Positions 275 through 26,828 of a DNA stretch of 64,000 nt are shown in pieces (within the stretch, counting starts at the first letter, position 1; each line of letters begins with the position of its first letter). Source of the stretch: a virus (taxonomy: Duplodnaviria > Caudoviricetes); the IMG/VR virus record IMGVR_UViG_3300025030_000042; one strand, given 5' to 3'. The position numbers were made by a program, and so were the translations under genes. The notes under the pieces were generated by a model. The model saw nothing but the letters and a program-made list of their open reading frames with translations. It was not told where the DNA came from and ran no database searches.

Positions 275-694
275 TTAAGTATTGATTCCGGAACCGCTCG
301 GCATTTGTAAATCTTTAGCGTCCAAAGAAGTAAGATTAGCCACTATTCTGATTTCTGCGTTTGATCCAGTATTTTCCATCGCAACATATACTTCTTTTAC
401 CTTCATTTGAAATGTATATGAATCATCCATTCCGGGAAGAGTAATATAATGATTTTTAGAAGTTACAACAGAACTATTTGAAATACTGTCAAAATATACA
501 CGAATATGATTATTTGATTTATTAATTACTGTAAAATCGCGAGTTACACTAGGAAACTCTATTTTCGTTTCACCATTATTTGTTGCTGACCCTGATACAT
601 AAGAAGCAGTTAAAAACGGGCGGCCGCTGATTTGATAAGATCCTACATTGTTGATCCCGACGCGCGGCTGGTGTAAAATAGCATTATTACTCAT
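275..694 (-). CDS. Hypothetical beta-rich protein, probably virion-associated
   Basis: 139-aa ORF overlapping the upstream stop, in the head-gene operon; paralogous to 1..260. Confidence 0.7.
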   Translation of the reverse strand: MSNNAILHQPRVGINNVGSYQISGRPFLTASYVSGSATNNGETKIEFPSVTRDFTVINKSNNHIRVYFDSISNSSVVTSKNHYITLPGMDDSYTFQMKVKEVYVAMENTGSNAEIRIVANLTSLDAKDLQMPSGSGINT

Positions 695-1430
695 CTTTTT
701 CTTCCTTAGTTATTCCAGTTATAGAAGACCAAGATATTCCAGTTATTATATGAGAAATAGTCGCTTTACTTACTCCGTATTCTTGTGCTAACTCAGAATA
801 ACTTCCTTCTTTGTTTTTGTATTTTTTTATTATTTCGAATACTTGTTCTTCTGTAAGTATTCTTCTGCTTGACTTTTCTCCACATTTTCCAAAATGTGCT
901 AAACTCATATTTTTCCTTGCTTCACTAGAACGAACCATTCCAAAATGTGCTATACTTATTTTTTCTCTCGTTTCTTTTGAAACAATCCTTCCTTTTCGAA
1001 CTTCGCTCAACTTCTTTCTGTGTTCTAGAGAAAGTTTTTTTCCTTTGTGCGCTTCACTCATATTTTTTTTTGCTTCAATAGTGTGCTTATATCCCAAACT
1101 ACTTTCACATATTAATAGTTTATTATATCCACACTTCGGATCGTTCGAACGATAAAAATCCTTCCAATAGTTTTCTCGTTCAGCGAGATATGTTTTAAGT
1201 TCTTGCTCGTTTTTTCTTTCTACTATTATTGATTCTAACATTATAAACTGAAAGTTTTCTTTTCCATATTTATTCCAAGAACGCTGAAGATGTTTATTTG
1301 GTGAATTTTTATTATGTTTTAAATTTTGCTTATGACCACTCCATCTATTGGATACGTTTTTCGAACTACCAACATAAACTTTATTGTTTATTTTATTTAC
1401 TATTTTATATATTCCAGGAATCTTTATCAT
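687..1430 (-). CDS. GIY-YIG homing endonuclease with NUMOD3-like repeats and C-terminal HTH
   Basis: N-terminal GIYKIVNKINNKVYVGSS, SEAHKGKKLSLEHRKKLSE repeats, C-terminal LTEEQVFEI...ELAQEYGVSKATISHII. Confidence 0.9.
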   Translation of the reverse strand: MIKIPGIYKIVNKINNKVYVGSSKNVSNRWSGHKQNLKHNKNSPNKHLQRSWNKYGKENFQFIMLESIIVERKNEQELKTYLAERENYWKDFYRSNDPKCGYNKLLICESSLGYKHTIEAKKNMSEAHKGKKLSLEHRKKLSEVRKGRIVSKETREKISIAHFGMVRSSEARKNMSLAHFGKCGEKSSRRILTEEQVFEIIKKYKNKEGSYSELAQEYGVSKATISHIITGISWSSITGITKEEKDE

Positions 1431-1747
1431 TATTGTTCCCTTCTATTCCTATCTTCTTGCCTTCGTCGTCTTTCTTGTTTTACTCTAATCTTTTTTTGTT
1501 TCTTTCGCTTCTTTTTATTATAAATAGAATCTTGATTTTCTTTTTCTCTCATAAGATCCGCTTCTTTTCGTTTGCGACGCTTTCGATCCGATGGTTTTTC
1601 ATATGAAAGATGTTCTTTGACTTCCTTCATAAAATCTTCTTTCTTCATCTTCCTTAAAAATCTGCGGATCATATGCTCAACTGTCTCATTTGGCTTCAGT
1701 GTTACTTCAACATTTATCGGGTTCGTTGACTCTGGATGTTTTACCAT
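1430..1747 (-). CDS. rpsU: Phage-encoded 30S ribosomal protein bS21 with basic C-terminal extension
   Basis: VTLKPNETVEHMIRRFLRKMKKEDFMKEVKEHLSYEKPSDRKRRKRKEA matches the bS21 pattern (E..LRRF.R....YEKPS..RK). SD AAGGTG lies upstream. Confidence 0.85.
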   Translation of the reverse strand: MVKHPESTNPINVEVTLKPNETVEHMIRRFLRKMKKEDFMKEVKEHLSYEKPSDRKRRKRKEADLMREKENQDSIYNKKKRKKQKKIRVKQERRRRQEDRNRREQ

Positions 1748-1762
1748 TATTTCACCTTTATT

Positions 1763-2248
1763 TTATTTGTTACCAAAAAACATTGATATATCTACGCCCG
1801 CATCGCCCGCCGGCAAATCCGCCAACGGACTTCTTCTTGACATTGCCACCGGATCGGTCGATGGTTCTGAAGGAATGGGTCTTGCGTTCTCTTTTATTGG
1901 TGTAGTTCCAGCGAAAAAATCAACCCCTCCATATGCTTCCGACCCTATTGCCTTTAAAAGCATTTTTTTGTGTTCGTTAATTTGTTCAGCTTTGTTTGGA
2001 ACTTTAAACTTTGGCATTTGTTGTTCTTTTATTTGTTCTGGAGATATATTATTTTCTTTATTGTCGGCAGAAATATTTATGGATTCGTTTAGACCGACGA
2101 CCACTTCTTTAATGATGCCGGATAGAAGACCGGATTTACCAGATAGAAGCATTTCGTTGATGGTTTCACGAACACATTGTTTAACGAGTGGTTTTAATAT
2201 CTCCTTAAGAGATTCTTTTTGATTATTTTTTTTATTGTTATCGGACAT
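1763..2248 (-). CDS. Hypothetical head-cluster protein
   Basis: 161-aa ORF translationally coupled to the prohead protease stop (shared base 2248). Confidence 0.7.
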   Translation of the reverse strand: MSDNNKKNNQKESLKEILKPLVKQCVRETINEMLLSGKSGLLSGIIKEVVVGLNESINISADNKENNISPEQIKEQQMPKFKVPNKAEQINEHKKMLLKAIGSEAYGGVDFFAGTTPIKENARPIPSEPSTDPVAMSRRSPLADLPAGDAGVDISMFFGNK

Positions 2249-2874
2249 TATTTGTAACCTGTAATATCATTTAAAATGCGCCACAGACGATCTTTTTTGG
2301 TGAAAATATTTGAAGTAAACTTTTTACTTTCTTGTAAACTCAAAAAACTCCCATAAACACTTGGATTTTGAACTGCGTCAAAACATATGAATTGAAAATC
2401 TTCATCATTTACCAAAGATCCTTCGCTCGTTTCTTTCAAAGAACCAAGTGCCCTCGAAGAAATACCAATAGGAATATTTGATTCGACTAGAGATTTTAAA
2501 ATCTGCCCGGATGGCATTTTTTCTAATATTTCTATTTTTCCCCAAAGTTCATCACCTCGCCACCAAACTTCTCTAACTACGTGACTAATATTTTTTAAAT
2601 CAATATCCACCGATTCTGCTGGATGATTACATTCACCTACACTTCGCCTCTCTCTTATTAAACTTTGATAGTTATTCATCTCTCTGGCGAGAGTTTCTTT
2701 TTTATATATACGACCATTTTGATTTTTGCGATTAGCACACTGAAGCATACCTGTTAAAATCATAGTTCCACCTTTAACAAGGCGCTTTTCTTCTTCGTTG
2801 AGAAAATCTTGACAAACCCCTCCTTCGCAGAGTTCATAATATTCGCGAATAATATATCTTTTATTGTTTGTCAT
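2248..2874 (-). CDS. Prohead core protease (T4 gp21-like)
   Basis: Motifs NRKNQNGRIY, GECNHP (catalytic His), SHVVREVWW, GISSRALGSL (catalytic Ser), FICFDAVQNPS. Confidence 0.92.
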   Translation of the reverse strand: MTNNKRYIIREYYELCEGGVCQDFLNEEEKRLVKGGTMILTGMLQCANRKNQNGRIYKKETLAREMNNYQSLIRERRSVGECNHPAESVDIDLKNISHVVREVWWRGDELWGKIEILEKMPSGQILKSLVESNIPIGISSRALGSLKETSEGSLVNDEDFQFICFDAVQNPSVYGSFLSLQESKKFTSNIFTKKDRLWRILNDITGYK

Positions 2875-2911: not shown

Positions 2912-2919
2912 TAAATAGT
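2912..2919 (-). promoter_or_regulatory. Putative late promoter ACTATTTA
   Basis: Exact motif copy in the gap upstream of the prohead protease/bS21 operon; G at the 6th base downstream. Confidence 0.65.
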
Positions 2920-3044: not shown

Positions 3045-3938
3045 TTAAATATCACTCCCTTTATATTTATTCATCAAATCTAAAAAAAATTTTTCTGATT
3101 CTTCATTTGTTTTAGTGTGTTTGATAATGTTTTCTTTTGCTTCCAAAGGTCTTAGATTTTTTAAATCCCAACAAATCTTAAAGTTTATATGTTCCATTGA
3201 ATCATATGGAAGTAAACTTTGCGGGTATATGTGGTCAATATGCCAATATGATCCATAATTTTGCCAGTTCATATTTTCGTCAAACTGTTTTTCTAAATGA
3301 TCTTTCAGTTCTTGAACAGTATACGATAAGTGCTTAAAACAAGAACTATTACTTCTTCTATTTTTTTTCATAAAAACTTTATATATTGAACGATTAACTC
3401 TCATTTTCAACTTATAGCAAACATCCTCCCTATATCTTATTTTTTGATTTATGAGACTTTTTTCAAGCATACATTTTTTACAAATATTTGAATAACCATT
3501 TGAAAAATATTTACAAAAACGAAACTCTTTTATATTTTTTTCAACATCACAAATTTTACATATTTTATTATCAAGAATATATTCTATTTCACCATTTTGG
3601 TGTTGATTATAATATATTTCCCTATACTTTTTTGATTTTTTGCGACAACATTCTTTACATCTATTTCTTCTTCCTGATTTTAAACTTCTTTCAATGGAAA
3701 AATCATCAATTTCTTTTTCACATTTACAAACATTACAGATTTTTTTCCCTTCGTTTAAAATATTATCAATATTCTCATTTTTAATCTTCTGTTTGAGACG
3801 ATGTTGTTTTGATATTTCGCGATTACATACTTTACAAATATAACTTAAACCATCTGCGCTACGAGAATTTTTTGACCAAAACTCCTCCGTTCTTATTTTT
3901 TCTTGTTGACACTCGTTACATTTTCTTATATTCATCAT
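3045..3938 (-). CDS. HNH homing endonuclease with three tandem CxxC...CxxC modules
   Basis: C-terminal WHIDHIYPQ...LKNLRPLEAKENIIK; N-terminal repeats of K.C..C...K...F......C..C. Confidence 0.85.
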   Translation of the reverse strand: MMNIRKCNECQQEKIRTEEFWSKNSRSADGLSYICKVCNREISKQHRLKQKIKNENIDNILNEGKKICNVCKCEKEIDDFSIERSLKSGRRNRCKECCRKKSKKYREIYYNQHQNGEIEYILDNKICKICDVEKNIKEFRFCKYFSNGYSNICKKCMLEKSLINQKIRYREDVCYKLKMRVNRSIYKVFMKKNRRSNSSCFKHLSYTVQELKDHLEKQFDENMNWQNYGSYWHIDHIYPQSLLPYDSMEHINFKICWDLKNLRPLEAKENIIKHTKTNEESEKFFLDLMNKYKGSDI

Positions 3939-6163: not shown

Positions 6164-6983
6164 AGATTTCTTTTACCAGTTCTTGTATTTTCATAACTTG
6201 ATTTATCAAAGCATCATCAATGCTTTGCCTTTCTTTGAAAGATTCCACAATATTTAAAACTTCATTTATCTTATTTTTTATTTCGCCGTCATCTTTTATA
6301 TCGGCATTTTCAAAGGATTCTTTAAGTTTATTTTTGAGCCTTCCGATTTCTTCGTTTAAGAACAACTTGAGTTCAACACCATTGTTGTTAAATGAAAATA
6401 TGTATTTATTTAAAAGTTGGCGTTGTTCGGTCAATAAGTTTTTATTATATTTTTCGTTAAACTTCTTTACAAATGTTTTGAACGCCAAATTTCCTATTGG
6501 CTCAAGAACAACAGCAGTCTCTTCTTTTTTTATCATATCGCCAATGATTTTTTGCTCAAGAACCAAACGCTTTTTAATAGGAAGTTTACCGTTAAATATT
6601 TGATAAACCGTCGCAAGACTTTTGTAATTTGGAATGAAGTTATCATATATTTCAACTCCAAACATTTGATTGATTTTGTTTATTAGTTTTGATTGTTCTG
6701 AAAACAATCTTTTCTCGTTGATTGAATATAAATGTTCTTGACGAGTTTCTTCGATCAATCGTTCTGCCAATCTTTGTTCAATACCTTCGTTTTCCAAAAG
6801 AGTATTGTATAATCTTAACTCTTTATTTAATATTGTTCCTTTTTTAAAATGTTCCTTTATAACAATAAGAAGGTTGTTTCTTTTTTTCTCATCTTTTTTT
6901 ACAATCGACTTTGTAAGTTCTTGAATAAGAATATTATAAAGAACGGCAGTGTTTCTCTTCTTATTATGTTTATTACTTGACAT
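6153..6983 (-). CDS. Helical protein downstream of the portal (possible prohead core/scaffold component)
   Basis: Likely start MSSNKHNKKRNTAVLY at 6983, overlapping the portal stop; helical and Glu/Lys-rich. Confidence 0.6.
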   Translation of the reverse strand: MSSNKHNKKRNTAVLYNILIQELTKSIVKKDEKKRNNLLIVIKEHFKKGTILNKELRLYNTLLENEGIEQRLAERLIEETRQEHLYSINEKRLFSEQSKLINKINQMFGVEIYDNFIPNYKSLATVYQIFNGKLPIKKRLVLEQKIIGDMIKKEETAVVLEPIGNLAFKTFVKKFNEKYNKNLLTEQRQLLNKYIFSFNNNGVELKLFLNEEIGRLKNKLKESFENADIKDDGEIKNKINEVLNIVESFKERQSIDDALINQVMKIQELVKEIYVG

Positions 6984-8961
6984 TCTTTTTATCTTCCTCA
7001 ATAGTTACCAATTGTAATAGTTTTTTTTCTTCTTTCTCGGTTAGAACTTTTCTTTTTACATCTCCAACCTTTTCCAAATCTTCAATCAATATATTTATTT
7101 CGTGACTGGTTCTTAAAATATCTGTTTCTTCATTATAAATAGTTTTGTTATTCTGTTCAACATTCTCTTTATTTTCATATATTCCCTTGGCAAATGTCGC
7201 CAAACCAGAATAACCCTTATGAATATTTCTTGCTGTGTTCCTACCAGATTCATCGTTGTATTTTGAGCGATACGAGCGCTTTCGTGCTCCCATATCTCGT
7301 TTATCTGACAAAACTGGATAATATAGTTTTCCTTTTGCTCCTTGGGTTAAATAAGGTTCATCTCGTTTTCCAGGTTCGGGCGATGAAGAATCTGAAGTAT
7401 CTGGTGATGCCAATAATGTTGATTCTTCTTCACTGCCGCCGGCAGATTCATCTCCTCCACCATCGAGATCATCTAAAGGAGATTCTCCGCTTCCACCAGC
7501 ACCACCAACGCTTGGTCCTTCAACAATTTCGTCAAGTTGGGCATCAAAATAACGATCAAAATACATTTCTTTTTGATTGCGAACCATTTCTTCATCGGAT
7601 AGACCGAATAGTTTCTTTCCGATCCAACGACGACTAAAGAATCCTTCGGTTGCTGCCGAAGCAACATCAAACTTTGTTCGCCAAGCTTCAAGTTCTTGAA
7701 GTTCTGCGATTTTTGAAGGATTGTTTAGAGATAGTTTAAATGATACAAGATCGCTTTTACGATATCCAAGCGTAAACAAATGAATAATACCAATCTTTTC
7801 AAGTTCGGATATTATTGAGCGTTGAATCCTTTGAATCGTTCGAGCAAATCGCAAATCTTTGGCACTCAAAGATGTTTTATCTGAGTCCGCTCCTTCTCCA
7901 CGAAATAAATATTCTTGAGGGATTTTGATCGCGGAAAATAACTTATCTTTGAGGTATTTGATATCGTCCATATCGCCACTGAACTGTCCGCCCGGCAAGG
8001 TTTCGATGCGAGTTTGTGTGTTTCCGCGAATAGGCAGAAAAAAATCTTCTTGAATGCTCGCAGGGTTAAAACGAAGATCGACTTTTCCTGTATCTGGATC
8101 TACTACCTGATTCCGTTTCATTGAAGTGATCATTTTCTGCATATATTGTTCTACTTCTTGTGGTGGAATAGACCCAACATCAATATAAAACACACGACGC
8201 TCCGGGGAACGAACTATTCTATACGCCATCATAGCATCTTCGAGCAGCATTATTTGACGAAATATTCGCCTTGCAGGATCAAGAATGGACGTCCCATTCG
8301 GCTGATATTTATCATTTCCAAGTATTCTAAAATGAGCAACCTGCCAGTTTTCAAAAGTCAATCCACCCGCATTCCAATGAAACTGAGTGTAGTTCGGATT
8401 CATTTTATCCTCGCCTTCCAACCGTTCCATTTCCGCCACTGGCAAGGGTATTACATTTTTAATTCCAATCTTTTCGTCAATATCTAAATAAATAAATAAA
8501 TCCCCATATTTACACAGCGCGCGCGCCCAACCAAAAAGATTAAAATCAATATTCAATATAGTATTGTATAATATATCAAGTTCGGTTTGTATTTCTTGAT
8601 TTGGGCAAGCAATCTTTAGCAACGGTTGAAGATCGCTGGAAGTAGTTATTTCGTCTCCGTAAATATCCAGGGCCGAATTCAGTATCGGATCGAACTCCAT
8701 CTGTTCAAACTCAGAATATCGAACCGCACGATTCTGTTTCATCATAATGTCGGTTCTTAAATGTTGAAACGGATCATAATCGGTTCGCTTAAAACTTTGC
8801 CCGTGAACAGACATAAAATCATATTTTTTTAAGTTTCTACGCCGAACATTTCTTTCCGATTGGCGACGATAGTTTACAAGTGGACCAGATAAAAGTCTTG
8901 TTAATTTCTTAAATAAAGTTGAAGCCGGATTGTTCGGATTTCTCTTGAAGTTATTTGCCAT
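6973..8961 (-). CDS. Portal protein (T4 gp20-like)
   Basis: LLEDAMMAYRIVRSPERRVFYIDVGSIPPQEVEQYMQK, EDFFLPIRG, IETLPGG, DIKYLKDKLFSAIKIP are gp20 family motifs. Confidence 0.95.
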   Translation of the reverse strand: MANNFKRNPNNPASTLFKKLTRLLSGPLVNYRRQSERNVRRRNLKKYDFMSVHGQSFKRTDYDPFQHLRTDIMMKQNRAVRYSEFEQMEFDPILNSALDIYGDEITTSSDLQPLLKIACPNQEIQTELDILYNTILNIDFNLFGWARALCKYGDLFIYLDIDEKIGIKNVIPLPVAEMERLEGEDKMNPNYTQFHWNAGGLTFENWQVAHFRILGNDKYQPNGTSILDPARRIFRQIMLLEDAMMAYRIVRSPERRVFYIDVGSIPPQEVEQYMQKMITSMKRNQVVDPDTGKVDLRFNPASIQEDFFLPIRGNTQTRIETLPGGQFSGDMDDIKYLKDKLFSAIKIPQEYLFRGEGADSDKTSLSAKDLRFARTIQRIQRSIISELEKIGIIHLFTLGYRKSDLVSFKLSLNNPSKIAELQELEAWRTKFDVASAATEGFFSRRWIGKKLFGLSDEEMVRNQKEMYFDRYFDAQLDEIVEGPSVGGAGGSGESPLDDLDGGGDESAGGSEEESTLLASPDTSDSSSPEPGKRDEPYLTQGAKGKLYYPVLSDKRDMGARKRSYRSKYNDESGRNTARNIHKGYSGLATFAKGIYENKENVEQNNKTIYNEETDILRTSHEINILIEDLEKVGDVKRKVLTEKEEKKLLQLVTIEEDKKNVK

Positions 8962-10042
8962 TGTTTATCCTTGATTTTAAAACTTGAATAATATCATTTT
9001 TTATTAATTTAAAAGATTTATCAAGTTTTAAAATTTTATTTATTAATTTTTCATTTTTATTATAATAATCATCTTTATAAATTATAATTTTAATTACCAA
9101 CCACGGATTGTATGTAGTATCGGAAGTAATTTGTATATTAAACTTATCTTGTTTTTCAATAGTATAATATTTCGGTAATATTTCATCATTTATAATTTTT
9201 TCTATTTCTGAATATTCATTTTTTTTCTGTTTATCGAATTCATCTATACTTATTGAAGTACCTGTTGAAATTTCTATAATATCCTTATCAAACGTCATGT
9301 TAAAAACTGATAATTTGTCTGAAATATTTAATAAATTTGATTCTAAATCCAATTCTTCTTTTTCATAAGGATTCTCAAAAACTTCTATTATTTCTATTTT
9401 ATCTTTTCCAAAAAAAACTGCTTGAGCTGGTTCATTATCGTGAATAATACTTTCTCCATAATCAACCATTCCATCGATATTCAAATTTCTTAAAATATAT
9501 GTCCAGATTTTAGGATTTTCATTAGCAATCATTCTAGTAATATTCCAAAAATAACCATCATAGGTTTGTACTTTAGCATCTTTTTTCCATTGTTCAATAT
9601 ATTTTTCAAAATTTTTGTTTTTATCTTTGTATTTATCAAATATTGGATTTATTTTAATATTATTTAATAATTGTTCATAATATTTTTCGTTATCTTGTAT
9701 TGAAAAATGAACAACAGCATTTAGATTTTTAGATTTAAATAAAATAACATACTTTCTATCACTAGCAAACGGAAGAGATTCATTTTCATATTTATTTAAA
9801 ATATCTTCTATTAATGGATAAGAATATATTCCAATTGGTGTATTATATTTACTTTTAGGATTTATACCCAATTTATTTATGTCTGAAAACTGAATAAAAT
9901 ATTGTGCCGGTATATTAATATATTTTTTAAGAATATCAAAAATATTTGAATTTTCCTTATTCATTTTTTTATATTTGGCAAGTTCGTCAAGTTTTTGTTC
10001 ATCAACAAACCGTCGCCAGTTTTCAAAAAGTTTATTAAACAT
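8951..10042 (-). CDS. Hypothetical protein with possible ADP-ribosyltransferase-like fold; paralog of 4583..5581
   Basis: KLGINPKSKYNTPIGIYSYPL, FWNITRM, NIDGMVDYG..IHDNEPAQAVFF; N-terminus MFNKLFENWRRFVDEQKLDE; TAATG coupling to the terminase stop. Confidence 0.55.
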   Translation of the reverse strand: MFNKLFENWRRFVDEQKLDELAKYKKMNKENSNIFDILKKYINIPAQYFIQFSDINKLGINPKSKYNTPIGIYSYPLIEDILNKYENESLPFASDRKYVILFKSKNLNAVVHFSIQDNEKYYEQLLNNIKINPIFDKYKDKNKNFEKYIEQWKKDAKVQTYDGYFWNITRMIANENPKIWTYILRNLNIDGMVDYGESIIHDNEPAQAVFFGKDKIEIIEVFENPYEKEELDLESNLLNISDKLSVFNMTFDKDIIEISTGTSISIDEFDKQKKNEYSEIEKIINDEILPKYYTIEKQDKFNIQITSDTTYNPWLVIKIIIYKDDYYNKNEKLINKILKLDKSFKLIKNDIIQVLKSRINNGK

Positions 10043-12846
10043 TATCCTTTATATATTCCCATATAATATCCCTGCTGAATCATTATATCTTGTTTAGTAG
10101 GTTTATATCCTTGTTGCCCCGGGATTCTTGTATCCAATGTCGATGTGCTAACGTGAATAGCATTCATAAATGCTTTTTTATATTCCACATCTTTTAATGA
10201 TGTCGCGAATACTTGATCCTTTATATAACAACCGATCGCGCACGCCATAATAAGATCGTCGTGACTATGGCGAGCCGCAGACGGTTTTGCGTTATTCCAA
10301 ATAAATGTTTTCAGTTCTTCATACATTCTTTTTGAATATAAATGTAGACTTCGCATTCTTATCATTTCTTCAAACTTCGCAATAATCAACGGTCTTGTTT
10401 TCGTTGTTGTAGAAAACCCTGGAACAGTATTTGACATTGATTCTGCCGCATATTGTTCAATAAACTCATTGCTTCCTTTTGTTGAATAATACATATTAGG
10501 ATATTCTAAATCTTCGATCAAGCGTTGAGTAACAAAGTATCCATTACTATTGATTTCGACCGCAATCATACATTCGCCATACTCTCTACCAGTCATATTT
10601 AACTGTTCGGAAAATAGATCGGGAGTTATTTTTCCTTTGTATTCCGCCACGATTTCCATTGTCTCAACTTTAAATACGTGAAACGCAGAAAAATCTTCGC
10701 CATCTCCACGAGCAACATCGGCAGAAATGAAATATGTCAATCCTGGTTGATAATCTTCCCAAACCCAAAGATTTCGATCGATGCCGGCGGTATATAAAGG
10801 ATCTTGAATGTGTTCAAAAACCTTTTTCATATCTTCTGGTGATATGACTGTATTGCCAGACATATTGAAGTTACAATTATGAACAATAAGATTTTCACAG
10901 ATATAAGAATTATCTTTCTCCACTTCAATATTATAAACACGAACACACTCTTCGGGACTTTCACTTTCAATATCAGAAATATTTGATATTAGCCCCCACC
11001 ACTTATCGTCATAAAATTTTGTTCTACATCCTTTCTTACTTTTAACGCCACTTTTAGTACACTCGTCTATTTTTTTTCCATCCACACTATTAAGTTCTAA
11101 AATCCAATTTGTTAAATGCTTTGGATTTTTTTTCAAATCAAATGAAACTCTGGTGTATAAATCAAATAAAGTCATTAATGTTCTAATTTGATAAATTAAT
11201 TTTTCGTTTACCAATCTTAAAACATTTTTTGTTTTAGGATTATGATATCCGTCTCCGAGCCAAACTCCATCGATCATACCCCTAATAAACTCAATATTCG
11301 TTTCAAAAATATTATTTTTAATAAGTTTGTTGTATGAATATCTTCCGGAAGTAAAAAGTTTTATTATTTCTATTAAAAATTTATTAGAAATATGAATCAC
11401 TGTACAATTAGAAGTTTCTCTTTCATAAAAGACACACCTAATCTCATATTTATTACAAAAACTTTTAACAAAATTTTTAAGTTCGTGTTCGTTTGAATGA
11501 AAAGCCAACTGAATACTATTTGGAGGATTGAGAATATTCCCTTCCGCTATATATAATCCCAAAAATTTACCAAGATCATAATCAACACTAATAAATCTTT
11601 TTGTATCTCCTTTTTGTCTAAAATATCTTGCTTTTATTTCTGTTTTATCAACACAGATATCAAACTCTGATATATCTATTTCTTTTATATTATTTTTAAA
11701 CACAGAGGAATTCAATTTCGGGAATAAACCATTTATGTATTGATTTATAACATATTGACCATATTTTTGTTCTAAATCATCTAAAGAATTCCAAGAAGTT
11801 TTAATATTTTTTGTTTCTAATAATTTCGAAAATACAGATGTGACAGTCAAAGAACCATCTACTTTTTTAATTTTTTCTAACGTTAAAATCGGATGATTTG
11901 TGGTTATTGATATATCGCTTTTTCTACACATAGGTACGCTAACTTTTTTAACTTTTTTAGAATTTTCTAAACGATTCATAGTTTTAGTTACACGCTGAAA
12001 TTTTCCAGTATGCGTTAAAACTAAATCTCCAACTTTTATATCTTCAATATATTTAAATCCATCATCTGTTATAATTTTCGTTCCACCTAAAACACATAAC
12101 AATTCTTGACCTATATCTCTCGACGTCATATTTTTTGTTTCTTTTTCATACCACGCCTGATCTCGATCGGGTCTTGAATCCCAAGGAAGTTCAACTAAAT
12201 GAAAATCATTTTCTCCAGATTTTGCTTCGGTACAGACTTTGTGAAAGAAGTTCCCTGCGCCGCAAGGCGTTGAAATCACTACACATTTTCCCTTTGTGGA
12301 CGATAGAGTGGGATATAAGGCTGCCCAGAGTTCTTCCATTCGTTCAATATGCGCCGCTTCGTCAATAACCAACAACGATAATGCTTCGGAACGACCCGCA
12401 TCCGGACTTGTCGTTGAAGCCTTTACCATTGAATCGTTTGTAAGATTAAAAGCGGATCTATTATTCACATCTGCTATTTTTGCTATTTGTTTTAACCAAT
12501 AAGGCAACTTTGTATACATATCTTTAGTTTTTCTAACAAACGCAGAAGCAACATTGTATTTTGTTGCTATAATAAGAACATTCTTTCCTTTATGAAAAAG
12601 AACCAACCAAAGAACATATGCTTGAGTTATTGTAGATATACCTAACTGTCGTGCCTTAAGAACAGCAGTAAAACGATAATCCATTAAATCTTTTATTAAA
12701 TCTTTTTGATACTGGAAGGTATTAAAGGGAACTAGCCCCTTTTTTTCATCATATATCCGAACATAGTTGGCAATAAAATAGTTCGGATCTTTTCCGCATT
12801 GTAATATTTCGTCGCGTATTTGTTGAGATGATAGTGTTGGTGGCAT
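10042..12846 (-). CDS. terL: Terminase large subunit (T4 gp17-like) containing an intein
   Basis: LKARQLGIST (Walker A region), LLVIDEAAHI (Walker B), VVISTPCG, nuclease ISADVARGDGEDFS and HDDLIMACAI. Confidence 0.95.
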   Translation of the reverse strand: MPPTLSSQQIRDEILQCGKDPNYFIANYVRIYDEKKGLVPFNTFQYQKDLIKDLMDYRFTAVLKARQLGISTITQAYVLWLVLFHKGKNVLIIATKYNVASAFVRKTKDMYTKLPYWLKQIAKIADVNNRSAFNLTNDSMVKASTTSPDAGRSEALSLLVIDEAAHIERMEELWAALYPTLSSTKGKCVVISTPCGAGNFFHKVCTEAKSGENDFHLVELPWDSRPDRDQAWYEKETKNMTSRDIGQELLCVLGGTKIITDDGFKYIEDIKVGDLVLTHTGKFQRVTKTMNRLENSKKVKKVSVPMCRKSDISITTNHPILTLEKIKKVDGSLTVTSVFSKLLETKNIKTSWNSLDDLEQKYGQYVINQYINGLFPKLNSSVFKNNIKEIDISEFDICVDKTEIKARYFRQKGDTKRFISVDYDLGKFLGLYIAEGNILNPPNSIQLAFHSNEHELKNFVKSFCNKYEIRCVFYERETSNCTVIHISNKFLIEIIKLFTSGRYSYNKLIKNNIFETNIEFIRGMIDGVWLGDGYHNPKTKNVLRLVNEKLIYQIRTLMTLFDLYTRVSFDLKKNPKHLTNWILELNSVDGKKIDECTKSGVKSKKGCRTKFYDDKWWGLISNISDIESESPEECVRVYNIEVEKDNSYICENLIVHNCNFNMSGNTVISPEDMKKVFEHIQDPLYTAGIDRNLWVWEDYQPGLTYFISADVARGDGEDFSAFHVFKVETMEIVAEYKGKITPDLFSEQLNMTGREYGECMIAVEINSNGYFVTQRLIEDLEYPNMYYSTKGSNEFIEQYAAESMSNTVPGFSTTTKTRPLIIAKFEEMIRMRSLHLYSKRMYEELKTFIWNNAKPSAARHSHDDLIMACAIGCYIKDQVFATSLKDVEYKKAFMNAIHVSTSTLDTRIPGQQGYKPTKQDIMIQQGYYMGIYKG
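10876..12096 (-). mobile_element. Intein (407 aa) with LAGLIDADG endonuclease inside terL
   Basis: Begins CVLGGTKIITDDG after GQELL and ends VYNIEVEKDNSYICENLIVHN before a +1 Cys; internal LGKFLGLYIAEGN and MIDGVWLGDG blocks. Confidence 0.92.
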
Positions 12847-22381: not shown

Positions 22382-23533
22382 TTAAAAAATGTCCGTCTTC
22401 AGTTTTATCAAATAGTCGTCCGCTTCTCGCTTGCGCAAAGGTCGTGCCAACTTGGCAATCGCAATCAAGTTTTTGTCGTCATCAAAAATACCAATCTTTG
22501 AAATATATGTAATCTTTTCATATGATCCAGTATATCCGGTCCAAGGAGATTTAACAATATTTTTTGCTTGTATATCTTCTCTTTCTCTATATGAAACGGA
22601 ACTTGTCAATGCCACTAAAGATCCCGATTGCGATCGATCAATAAATGTCGGGTTATTAGAAAAGTTAAGTTCTCCTTTTCTTGCGTGACAGTTCATTGTT
22701 ATGGTATTTACATAGTTAACACCTTCAAAAGATAAACTAAATGATGACGAGGGAGCACCATTGGTAAATCCAAAATAAGTCCACCGAGGAACAACAGAAC
22801 CACCACCAGTTGTATACACTTCGGTATGTTCCGTTGTCAAATCCCAGGTTCCAGTTAAAACCATAAATCCTTCGTTGTATAATACAACACCCGCAACAGA
22901 TCCAGATTGATTGCTTCCAGATGGTTCGGTTTGAACAAGTTCTCCATTTTGCCTTAAATCTTGGGCTCTGGAAATCATTGTTCCGGAAACATAAAACTTT
23001 AAATCTACGCTACCTTTTCTAATACTGGAACCATAAAATATACTGGGAATAGATATAAGTCCGATTTCTTGCGTTGATTTGTCTCCGAGACCGATTTCGG
23101 TGTTATAAGAATAATGCGGCGACCATTTAGAATAATAGTTTAAAGTATTTTTTAATGCCGTTATTCTTGCTCTTGAAGAGTTACTTGAATAAAACTCTTT
23201 TGATATTGATGCCGTCATTGGATATGATCCGGTAATCGTATCTCCATAAGAATAATCGGCGTGATATGAAGTTTTTGTTACCGCTTTTAAAGAATACGGA
23301 TCGGAACCTTTAACCACGAACGGATATATCATTGAAGTTGATAGACGATCAACATTTATTTCGTGAAGACTGATGCTTCCTTGTGGTGTGTGAGTTACAA
23401 TATTCGTAAAAGAACCGGACTCTTTAAAAATATTGTTATAATATATGTTTCGATCATATATTATAAAGTCTGCGCGCGGATAGGTTTTGATGCGGGAATA
23501 TAGAAGATCACCTTCTTTGAACTTATAAAACAT
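22382..23533 (-). CDS. Baseplate/tail structural protein with a tail-collar-fibre-like C-terminal domain
   Basis: NFSNNPTF...YISKIGIFDDDKNLIAIAKLARPLRK, paralogous to the C-terminus of 26962..28035. Confidence 0.7.
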   Translation of the reverse strand: MFYKFKEGDLLYSRIKTYPRADFIIYDRNIYYNNIFKESGSFTNIVTHTPQGSISLHEINVDRLSTSMIYPFVVKGSDPYSLKAVTKTSYHADYSYGDTITGSYPMTASISKEFYSSNSSRARITALKNTLNYYSKWSPHYSYNTEIGLGDKSTQEIGLISIPSIFYGSSIRKGSVDLKFYVSGTMISRAQDLRQNGELVQTEPSGSNQSGSVAGVVLYNEGFMVLTGTWDLTTEHTEVYTTGGGSVVPRWTYFGFTNGAPSSSFSLSFEGVNYVNTITMNCHARKGELNFSNNPTFIDRSQSGSLVALTSSVSYREREDIQAKNIVKSPWTGYTGSYEKITYISKIGIFDDDKNLIAIAKLARPLRKREADDYLIKLKTDIF

Positions 23534-23546
23534 TCATAGTAAATAG
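23520..23546. repeat. 27-bp direct repeat, copy 1 (late motif plus first codons MFYKF of 22382..23533)
   Basis: aacttataaaacattcatagtaaatag matches 26802..26828 at 26 of 27 bases. Confidence 0.85.
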
Positions 23547-25116: not shown

Positions 25117-26739
25117 TTAACTTAGATTCCTTGACCAGTTAGGATATGGATAGTCAGCAGGAGTAGTTGTTATATGTTCATACTCTGATTTAAATCTAAT
25201 AGAGGCAGAATAACCTGGAAGAGTTAAATCTAAAACTCTTTGTGCTGGACCTTCTTTATCCGAAGAACGAACGATAGCATTTGCTACACTAGCATCTAGT
25301 AAATAATCATAAATAGCATTTAAATTTTCAAGATTATTCATAAGCAATATTGGGTCTAATATTGTTGTTAAAGTAGTATTATAAAAAACAGAAAGGTTTT
25401 TGCTCGTATCCCAATCATTACCTTCAAAATCAGTAGTTGTTTCTGGGTCTCCAAGTGGCCATCGCACAAAACGATCTGATGGTTGGAAACAGTCCCTTGC
25501 AAGCAAAAGCACTCCATAATGAGAATTCCCAGAAATTGTATTGTGAGAAACAATTGGAGATACTATAGGAGACCTATCTAACCAATTATTAACAGAGACA
25601 GCATATGTTGGTCGAAGGTCTTGCCCATTTTCTATATAAGCCCCATCAATAACTATATTATTCTGATATATTTCTGCATACTCTGTTTCTACAGAAATAG
25701 CACCAACATAGAAGAATTTATCTTCTCCAATATAAGTACCAATATCTAAAGTAATATCATTGGAATATATTGCCATTGGTAAAAAATGCTCAGGAAGGAC
25801 AAAACTGCTTCTATAGGCCCTAATAACTGCTGCTCGAACGGTTGCAGGGCGAATACAACGAGCCGTTGTCATTGTTAGTGTGTTCTGAAATAGAGAAACT
25901 TTATGATTAAGGTCTGGTGTTTCTGCGGATTTAGTCAAATCTACTAAGTGTAGACACGCATCAATAAAATTATAAATAGTATTATGATGAATTTCTACAT
26001 TAGAATCAGTAGGTCCTAAGTGCAAACCTTCGTGTCTAAAAGAAGGAAATCCAACACTACTATGCATAGCACCATTTATATTGCAATGATGTACTAAAAT
26101 GTTATTTCTAACTGGATGTTGTGTAAGAGTAGGGTTAGGATTATCAGAAATTGTTATTGGTTTATTGATATTAGTAAAATTATTTGAAATAACAACATTT
26201 ACATTTAGAGTTGAAGTAAAGCGCAGGGAAAATAATTCCGAAAAATCACAATGTGACACTTCCGTTGATTCACAACTAGTAATAATAATAGAACTTCCTG
26301 GAATTTTTTTAAATTTAAGAGAAGAAATTAAAACTACCGGTGGTACAGGAAGAAGAGAAAAGTTGTGAGGTCCGAATACTCCTGTATCATCGTTTTGGCC
26401 GCCTATCTCAAGTAGGGCACCTAAAAGAACTGGACGATTTACTTCGTCTCCAATAACTTGGACGTTTTTTCTAAGACGAATACCCCTCTCATTTCTTAAT
26501 TCTAATCCGCTGGGCAAATTAACAGGCGGCCCAGTAAATCTTGAATCTGTTTCTGTTTCACCAAGATTCCACGCCTGTGGCACTGAAGCTCCTAGTCCTG
26601 GGTCTGTTACTCCCATGACATTTACTACGTCGTAATTATTCACTGCGTCTTGAAATGTTTTCCAATCGCCTCCTACAACAAGATTGTTGACGTCAAGAAC
26701 TTTGAATACTCCAGTTGGATAAATTGTAATTGATGACAT
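25117..26739 (-). CDS. Right-handed beta-helix (pectin lyase-like) tailspike/depolymerase
   Basis: Repeated Asn/Ile ladders (VEIHHNTIYNF, VSLFQNTL, EIYQNNIVI, IVSHNTISGN); own late motif and SD AAGGAG. Confidence 0.65.
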   Translation of the reverse strand: MSSITIYPTGVFKVLDVNNLVVGGDWKTFQDAVNNYDVVNVMGVTDPGLGASVPQAWNLGETETDSRFTGPPVNLPSGLELRNERGIRLRKNVQVIGDEVNRPVLLGALLEIGGQNDDTGVFGPHNFSLLPVPPVVLISSLKFKKIPGSSIIITSCESTEVSHCDFSELFSLRFTSTLNVNVVISNNFTNINKPITISDNPNPTLTQHPVRNNILVHHCNINGAMHSSVGFPSFRHEGLHLGPTDSNVEIHHNTIYNFIDACLHLVDLTKSAETPDLNHKVSLFQNTLTMTTARCIRPATVRAAVIRAYRSSFVLPEHFLPMAIYSNDITLDIGTYIGEDKFFYVGAISVETEYAEIYQNNIVIDGAYIENGQDLRPTYAVSVNNWLDRSPIVSPIVSHNTISGNSHYGVLLLARDCFQPSDRFVRWPLGDPETTTDFEGNDWDTSKNLSVFYNTTLTTILDPILLMNNLENLNAIYDYLLDASVANAIVRSSDKEGPAQRVLDLTLPGYSASIRFKSEYEHITTTPADYPYPNWSRNLS

Positions 26740-26801: not shown

Positions 26802-26828
26802 AACTTATAGAACATTCATAGTAAATAG
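26802..26828. repeat. 27-bp direct repeat, copy 2 (orphan promoter plus mini-ORF MFYKFNNQ*)
   Basis: aacttatagaacattcatagtaaatag; the ATG at 26815 reads MFYKFNNQ-stop (26789), compared with MFYKFKEG in the intact gene. Confidence 0.85.

Follow-up and report, generated by a model that had tools for sequence, protein, structure and literature searches.

Ribosomal protein bS21 is the dominant ribosomal protein encoded by viruses (Mizuno et al. 2019, PMC6375957). Entry into ribosomes has been demonstrated for a single phage bS21, that of the pelagiphage HTVC008M, which was acquired from its alphaproteobacterial host; E. coli 70S ribosomes incorporate this protein and then show poor translation in vitro (PMC6375957). 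In freshwater phages of Bacteroidetes, bS21 lies within the terminase/portal/protease/capsid block and is expressed with the late genes (Chen et al. 2022, PMC9723584), and among 900 published bS21 phages the prohead protease is the commonest neighbour of bS21, in 310 genomes (PMC9723584). The statement of the sequence-only reading that large phages can carry bS21 among structural genes and express it late is thus documented in the same work, and the presence of bS21 in a capsid-gene block is an arrangement already known in kind. On the ribosome, bS21 adjoins the anti-Shine-Dalgarno (anti-SD) sequence (PMC9723584, PMC10491246). Work in E. coli indicates that it holds the anti-SD in the exit path and that ribosomes without uS2 and bS21 favour leaderless mRNA (PMC10491246). 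The bS21 of Bacteroidia has a less basic C-terminal domain, and its signature Tyr54, by stacking on A1534, contributes to hiding the anti-SD (Jha et al., PMC7797042).

We analysed a stretch of 64,000 nucleotides from the virus record IMGVR_UViG_3300025030_000042, referred to here as the window, in which every gene is on the minus strand and the GC content is about 32%. The identical bS21 protein was read on 23 contigs from several groundwater metagenome assemblies, the longest contig recorded for it has 211,467 bp, and the source is an uncultured 211-kb groundwater T4-like phage. The bS21 gene is placed among the head genes as follows.

10042-12846, minus strand: terminase, 934 aa, upstream of bS21 in the direction of transcription
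6973-8961, minus strand: T4-type portal, upstream of bS21
2912-2918, minus strand: CTATTTA box from the motif scan, 44 nt before the protease ATG, probable late promoter of the protease, scaffold-like and bS21 genes
2248-2874, minus strand: prohead protease, T4 gp21-like (Peptidase_S77, 79.7 bits; phrog_207, head maturation protease)
1763-2248, minus strand: scaffold-like protein, 161 aa, named by position only, its start overlapping the protease stop
1752-1756, minus strand: Shine-Dalgarno-like GGTGA, separated from the bS21 ATG by 4 nt; its pairing with the anti-SD has dG -4.3 kcal/mol
1430-1747, minus strand: bS21 gene of 105 codons and a TAA stop, whose final base is also the A of the endonuclease ATG (ORF list, PF01165, TIGR00030)
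1521-1527, minus strand: CTATTTA box from the motif scan, within the bS21 reading frame at codons S74-I75-Y76; the endonuclease ATG is 97 nt further on
687-1430, minus strand: GIY-YIG/NUMOD3 homing endonuclease between bS21 and the 139-aa gene (Pfam GIY-YIG and NUMOD3; PHROG homing endonuclease)
275-694, minus strand: conserved head-block gene, 139 aa, directly after bS21 in the relatives

The earlier placement of bS21 downstream of the late motif at 2912 and of the prohead protease proved correct, with the protease and the scaffold-like gene directly upstream on the same strand. The gap of 15 nt between the scaffold-like gene and bS21 holds the GGTGA element, and an SD before bS21 was also seen in the relatives. 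On its other side, bS21 is joined to the endonuclease by a TAATG overlap, and the endonuclease overlaps the next gene by 8 nt. A gp23-type major capsid protein is encoded about 6 kb beyond the 139-aa gene, as seen in the locus L001. The 139-aa gene, which matched no Pfam or PHROG family, forms a tandem pair of paralogous small genes with 3-260 (139 and about 130 aa, 33% identical; also at L001:11054-11880), and neither of the two had a Pfam or PHROG match.

A second nuclease-like gene of 297 aa is located at 3045-3938 between head-gene units; its product has Cys-rich repeats and matches endonuclease VII and Lar-like families in PHROG, together with a weak match to GmrSD_C. The terminase (934 aa, 10042-12846) has a weak Hint-domain match, suggesting an intein, and the portal of the relative L009 (L009:1887-7178) has 1763 aa with several intein and LAGLIDADG matches. 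The head genes of this phage group seem to be rich in selfish elements.

The open reading frame at 1430-1747 is a genuine phage homologue of bacterial ribosomal protein bS21. Pfam Ribosomal_S21 (PF01165) matched residues 14-63 with 44.2 bits (cut-off 27), TIGR00030, the NCBIfam S21p equivalog, matched with 45 bits against a cut-off of 28.95, and PHROG 21469, 'ribosomal protein S21', was also matched; with both HMM scores above their cut-offs, the bS21-like core claimed from the letters was confirmed. By sequence comparison, the protein matched 23 distinct solved bS21 chains. The core motifs R28-R29-F30 in helix 1 and Y49-E-K-P-S53 before the C-terminal helix are present; R29, F30 and R57 are invariant in alignment A1, and K51 and S53 do not vary among the 51 members of the family alignment described below. 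An AlphaFold2 model from 18 homologues had a mean pLDDT of 89.6, with predicted helices at 23-36, 39-47 and 52-104, the last being continuous. The core is real, since the profile matches, the solved-chain matches and the AlphaFold2 helices agree. Bacterial bS21 (RpsU; e.g., the E. coli PDB chains) has the same core motifs, helix layout and basic C-terminal helix, whereas the window protein is phage-encoded, has 105 aa instead of about 60-71 aa, and carries an N-terminal lead of about 10 residues and an extra tail of 30 residues.

An exhaustive profile search yielded 609 bS21 homologues, the closest of which are uncultured sequences of 73-90 aa with 44-63% identity. The closest homologue, L009, is 63% identical and lies in a head block, likewise L011 and L012, and the contigs of the closest relatives share the order of protease, scaffold-like gene, bS21, 139-aa homologue and capsid protein. 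When IMG/VR was scanned with an alignment of the closest proteins, 80 loci were found, and 57 of them were syntenic, holding 51 unique bS21 proteins. In the 57 loci, bS21 is preceded at about 1 kb by the protease and at about 0.4 kb by the scaffold gene, and the scaffold-like gene keeps its place before bS21 with 29-50% identity. In most of the syntenic loci, the homologue of the 139-aa gene begins 0.23-0.33 kb after the bS21 start, and the capsid gene comes next. These homologues, placed right behind bS21 in most of the related phages, share a conserved N-terminal motif, G-x-N-N-V-G-S-Y-Q-I-S-G, and the 139-aa product may be a head-block partner of bS21 or a capsid accessory protein. Other searches returned little: a word-index protein search with bS21 gave only its own sequence, a scan with the protease as a single protein gave three loci, and megablast of 12 kb against phage records gave no match.

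Among cultured phages, portal similarity is highest to Flavobacterium phage immuto (44%), followed by Microcystis phage Mel-JY01 (43%). Mel-JY01 (PP395634.1, 190 kb) resembles the window in its T4-like head block with SD-led head genes and in its order of prohead protease, a gene of about 150 aa, bS21 and then the capsid protein, where a 75-aa gene annotated 'RpsU ribosomal protein S21' is located at exactly the position of bS21. This RpsU, however, has a short tail and is only 33% identical to the window bS21, and no homing endonuclease follows it. In immuto, an unrelated acidic 75-aa gene occupies the position of bS21. A homologue of the 139-aa gene was found in neither Mel-JY01 nor immuto by tblastn (E <= 0.01). 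In a tblastn search of bS21 against 50,697 phage records, nothing was found at E <= 1e-3; because Mel-JY01 was in this set and its bS21 was missed, the blank reflects a limit of sensitivity or of the low-complexity filter and not absence.

In the phylogenetic tree, all 51 unique family bS21 proteins clustered together (SH-aLRT 95), separately from the closest bacterial bS21 proteins, and the sister of the window protein was L009 (SH-aLRT 92), in a quick maximum-likelihood IQ-TREE search on 78 columns with low resolution. The bacterial rows in this tree are mostly from Planctomycetota/PVC, taken from a pattern-biased scan, and control genomes scanned to add further phyla yielded no loci. That genome scan for bacterial bS21 gave mostly Planctomycetota/PVC proteins with 32-49% identity, and its search patterns favour lineages with K-P-S-D/E. 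A hint at the host from these matches was dropped, because the patterns are biased and the phage proteins group on their own; the phylogeny, suggested earlier as a source of a host clue, thus gave none. In one 'bacterial' row inside the phage group, a contig of an Acidiferrobacteraceae MAG (PBOB01000007.1), bS21 is identical to that of an IMG/VR locus, both contigs have 24,260 bp and are evidently one and the same, and the phage head block is carried; this lone row is probably a phage contig binned into the MAG. From the conserved synteny and the single phage group in the tree, bS21 is an old, vertically kept and long-fixed part of the head block in a large group of aquatic T4-like phages. HTVC008M is likewise a T4-like aquatic myovirus with bS21; unlike its protein, the window family is an old phage group of its own, for which no clear donor is seen.

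We consider it likely that a true bS21 is fixed in the head block and serves in the late supply or replacement of bS21 on the host 30S subunit, and that residues 76-105 are a stop-loss extension, these three parts being taken as one joint explanation.

Of the CTATTTA boxes in the window, 18 are on the coding strand and 4 on the opposite one, mostly at 45 nt or less from a start codon. The bS21 gene sits 1.1 kb downstream of the box at 2912-2918, and the motif and terminator scans found no further box and no minus-strand terminator-like site between the two, so bS21 is probably co-transcribed with the protease and scaffold genes. The box at 2912-2918 is probably the late promoter for a unit of protease, scaffold-like gene and bS21, in which bS21 is last. 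We infer that bS21 is made late, together with the capsid proteins. Among the 57 related loci, 34 have a CTA[AT]TTA box within a few bases of the bS21 stop, and four loci (L009, L181 as its copy in IMG/VR, L184 and L216) have the box and the stop overlapping. A late-type promoter box right after bS21 is therefore a conserved feature, and it presumably drives the next gene. In immuto (locus L013; 2170, 5795, 8785 and 10668), a CTATTTA box precedes head genes, and this phage lacks both SD sequences and bS21; the box is thus common to the wider T4-like lineage regardless of bS21. Near-identical stretches (CTATTTACTATGAATGTT[C/T]TATAAGTT) with the box right on the ATG were observed at 26815-26828 and 23533-23546, and they look like duplicated promoters with gene starts; from the copy at 26828 it is 89 nt to the start annotated at 26739.

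By analogy with the described systems, the phage bS21 most likely binds the platform of the host 30S subunits and supports the anti-SD end of the 16S rRNA. It would top up or replace the host bS21 during the late burst of translation of SD-led structural mRNAs. Alternatively, the phage protein might be a competitor that displaces the host bS21 and shuts down or biases host translation, as the family is far diverged from any bacterial bS21 and the E. coli 70S ribosomes that took up the HTVC008M protein translate at about 5% of the wild type in vitro (PMC6375957). However, the authors of that study say that the loss may be a mismatch in a foreign ribosome, the rRNA-binding core motifs are conserved in the family, and a late structural-gene position is poor timing for host shut-off. 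We regard this alternative as unlikely.

SD usage was measured in the window and in related loci. In the window, an SD with dG <= -4.5 kcal/mol precedes 40% of 53 genes as compared with 14% of control positions, and the proportions at dG <= -8 are 13% and 1.6%, respectively. In 50 bS21-bearing family loci, dG <= -6 was obtained for 46% of 476 genes versus 10% of controls; in the four relatives without bS21 (immuto and L281-L283), SDs were at the background level of 0-9%. The data are suggestive of an association between the presence of bS21 and SD use that fits a classical SD-supporting role; only four loci without bS21 and crude gene calls underlie it, and phylogeny and host are confounding factors. 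A box is located 10-14 nt before the start codon in three or four genes (23533, 16415, 48919 and perhaps 61955), and these genes plausibly have very short mRNA leaders or none. The sequence-only reading had proposed that the phage uses both SD-led and leaderless starts; strong SDs and box-abutting starts are indeed both present, and the leaderless status is deduced from the position of the boxes.

The type of bS21 was judged from the position of Tyr54. Leu65 of the window bS21 aligns with Tyr54 of the best solved chain, 9i5v_9. In the family, this position, 16 residues after the aromatic residue of the K-P-S motif, is R/K in 40 of 51 proteins and aromatic in two of 51, and the median pI of the C-terminal domain is 11.6. 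Neither of the two features of the Bacteroidia type, an aromatic residue at Tyr54 and a less basic C-terminal domain, was found in the window bS21. By its residues, the family bS21 is of the ordinary basic, SD-compatible type without the Bacteroidia aromatic that hides the anti-SD. The freshwater Bacteroidetes phages, AT-rich large myoviruses, also have bS21 in the head-gene block (PMC9723584), but in those phages bS21 retains Tyr54 and is encoded on the strand opposite the head genes, whereas the window bS21 is on the same strand, has Leu at this position and has a highly basic tail. Because E. coli ribosomes without bS21 favour leaderless mRNA, a canonical bS21 is expected to favour SD-led and not leaderless initiation. 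The proposal that this bS21 retunes late ribosomes between SD-led and leaderless messages, with a specific role of the tail, finds no support, since the family protein is of the ordinary basic type and its carriers are SD users, and it is quite unlikely.

The C-terminal part of the protein was divided at the point where L009 ends.

1523-1747, minus strand: residues 1-75, with the short N-terminal lead, the bS21 core and a basic C-terminal helix of normal length (alignments, AlphaFold2, L009 end)
1433-1522, minus strand: residues 76-105, the extension of 30 codons with 17 K/R, pI 11.7 and 83% purine (codon comparison with L009 and L100, composition)

The tail after K-P-S has 52 residues with 26 K/R and 10 D/E and a pI of 11.35, and it is the longest among the 51 unique family proteins (median 31; 5-95%, 17-42). 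In the bS21 of the window, 37 residues lie past the end of the Pfam model; a normal bS21 also has a basic C-terminal helix past this model, and residues 54-75 are this usual helix. The Arg/Lys-rich extension, given as about 35 aa before, is thus real as a basic tail and the longest in the family, but the true excess is about 20-30 aa. Among the 150 best database representatives, the median tail is 26 residues and about 10% equal or exceed that of the window, though some of them look like gene-calling artefacts, and viral bS21 clusters with representatives of 88-106 aa are present in the ESM Atlas. Residues 76-105 are predicted by AlphaFold2 to continue the C-terminal helix, and their 90 nt are the most purine-rich stretch of 90 nt in the window. 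Another family bS21, L237:2757-3071, has 104 aa with an N-terminal lead of about 16 residues and a tail of 45 residues; long bS21 variants therefore arose more than once.

The origin of the extension was examined codon by codon, as the low complexity of the 3' ends made their pairwise MAFFT DNA alignment uninformative. The bS21 of L009 ends with ...GAA ACT ATT TAA, in which the stop is inside the CTATTTA box, and the 139-aa homologue starts 30 nt later. The window reads ...GAT TCT ATT TAT AAT AAA AAG... at the matching place, with an offset of two residues relative to L009. The same box in the same frame encodes Ser74-Ile75-Tyr76 here, and 29 more codons follow to the TAA that overlaps the endonuclease ATG. 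The L009 stop aligns with the third base of the Tyr codon (1520) in the window, and L009 ends at the match of residue 75. In L100 (90 aa), ACT AAT TAT is followed by 9 more codons. The stop codon in the box after bS21 would have changed to TAT, and translation would then run through 90 purine-rich bases to the TAA overlapping the endonuclease ATG; the direction of this change, a loss in the window and not a gain in L009, is read from three close relatives only. Because the tail lies beyond the L009 stop and none of the 50 other proteins has one so long, it is a young extension and not a conserved functional module. Residues 76-105 are most likely a young, lineage-specific read-through by stop loss and not a special adaptation. 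Selection for a charged helix may nevertheless be behind the tail, and the purine richness could be a cause or a consequence of the coding for Lys/Arg/Glu.

The bS21 gene is identical in all eight loci of the strains, and L003, L004, L005 and L007 are 99.2-100% identical to L001. With strains about 99-100% identical and bS21 invariant, a within-population selection test on the tail had no power. A block of identity in L003 around bS21 and the endonuclease was considered and rejected, as it amounts to the 99% identity seen generally, combined with a local indel of the scaffold gene.

The sequence-only reading regarded the tail as an adaptive module, which would make extra contacts with 16S rRNA or mRNA and enable late ribosomes to handle both strong-SD and leaderless phage messages. 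The location of bS21 beside the anti-SD (PMC9723584, PMC10491246) and the occurrence in the window of strong SDs together with three or four box-abutting starts would suit such a module, but the short-tailed relatives show the same box and SD architecture, and leaderless translation in E. coli is favoured by the loss of bS21 (PMC10491246). The long charged helix is predicted with high confidence and its DNA is exceptionally purine-rich; high AlphaFold confidence, however, is usual for K/R/E-rich helices and is silent on function. Furthermore, the last 30 residues have no counterpart in the 50 other unique family proteins and begin exactly at the stop of the sister protein. We consider an adaptive origin of the tail to be quite improbable.

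The preferred reading of the tail, a stop-loss read-through, places its DNA directly in front of the homing endonuclease, which was not present at the corresponding site in the relatives L009, L100 and L011. The purine-rich leader before the endonuclease includes an SD-like AGAAGGGAA (dG -5.3) just before the TAATG junction. As a check of whether the tail DNA came with the endonuclease, its nearest relatives were compared; they are 42% identical or less, and none has the same 5' flank. When metagenome contigs were scanned with 20-mers for alleles without the endonuclease, only chance matches came up. Through translational coupling, the extension may benefit the endonuclease more than the ribosome. 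A combined reading would hold that the extension is a non-neutral helix reaching from the 30S platform toward the mRNA exit, where it alters the choice of 5' leaders, and that its frame has at the same time been captured by the endonuclease for restart. If true, one DNA stretch would be a protein tail, a late promoter box and an endonuclease leader at once; we think that this model has a low chance of being right.

Finally, packaging of bS21 in the capsid as a basic internal protein, which would be delivered with the DNA and act at the onset of the next infection, was raised in PMC9723584 and would agree with the fixed place between the scaffold and capsid genes and the very basic protein, but by eye the short N-terminal lead showed no recognisable signal for capsid targeting or a protease site, and this role, like host shut-off a less likely alternative to supply or replacement, is very unlikely.

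In one large group of aquatic T4-like phages, bS21 closes a transcription unit that is immediately followed by a late-type promoter box. The original point of this locus is that the long tail is best explained by read-through across the embedded promoter box into the leader of the inserted endonuclease. Long basic tails can arise trivially by such read-through into purine-rich leaders, and therefore the length of a tail alone should not count as evidence of new ribosome contacts. The ordinary SD-compatible bS21 and the SD use of its carriers fit a role of supply or replacement in the SD-led late translation of these phages.
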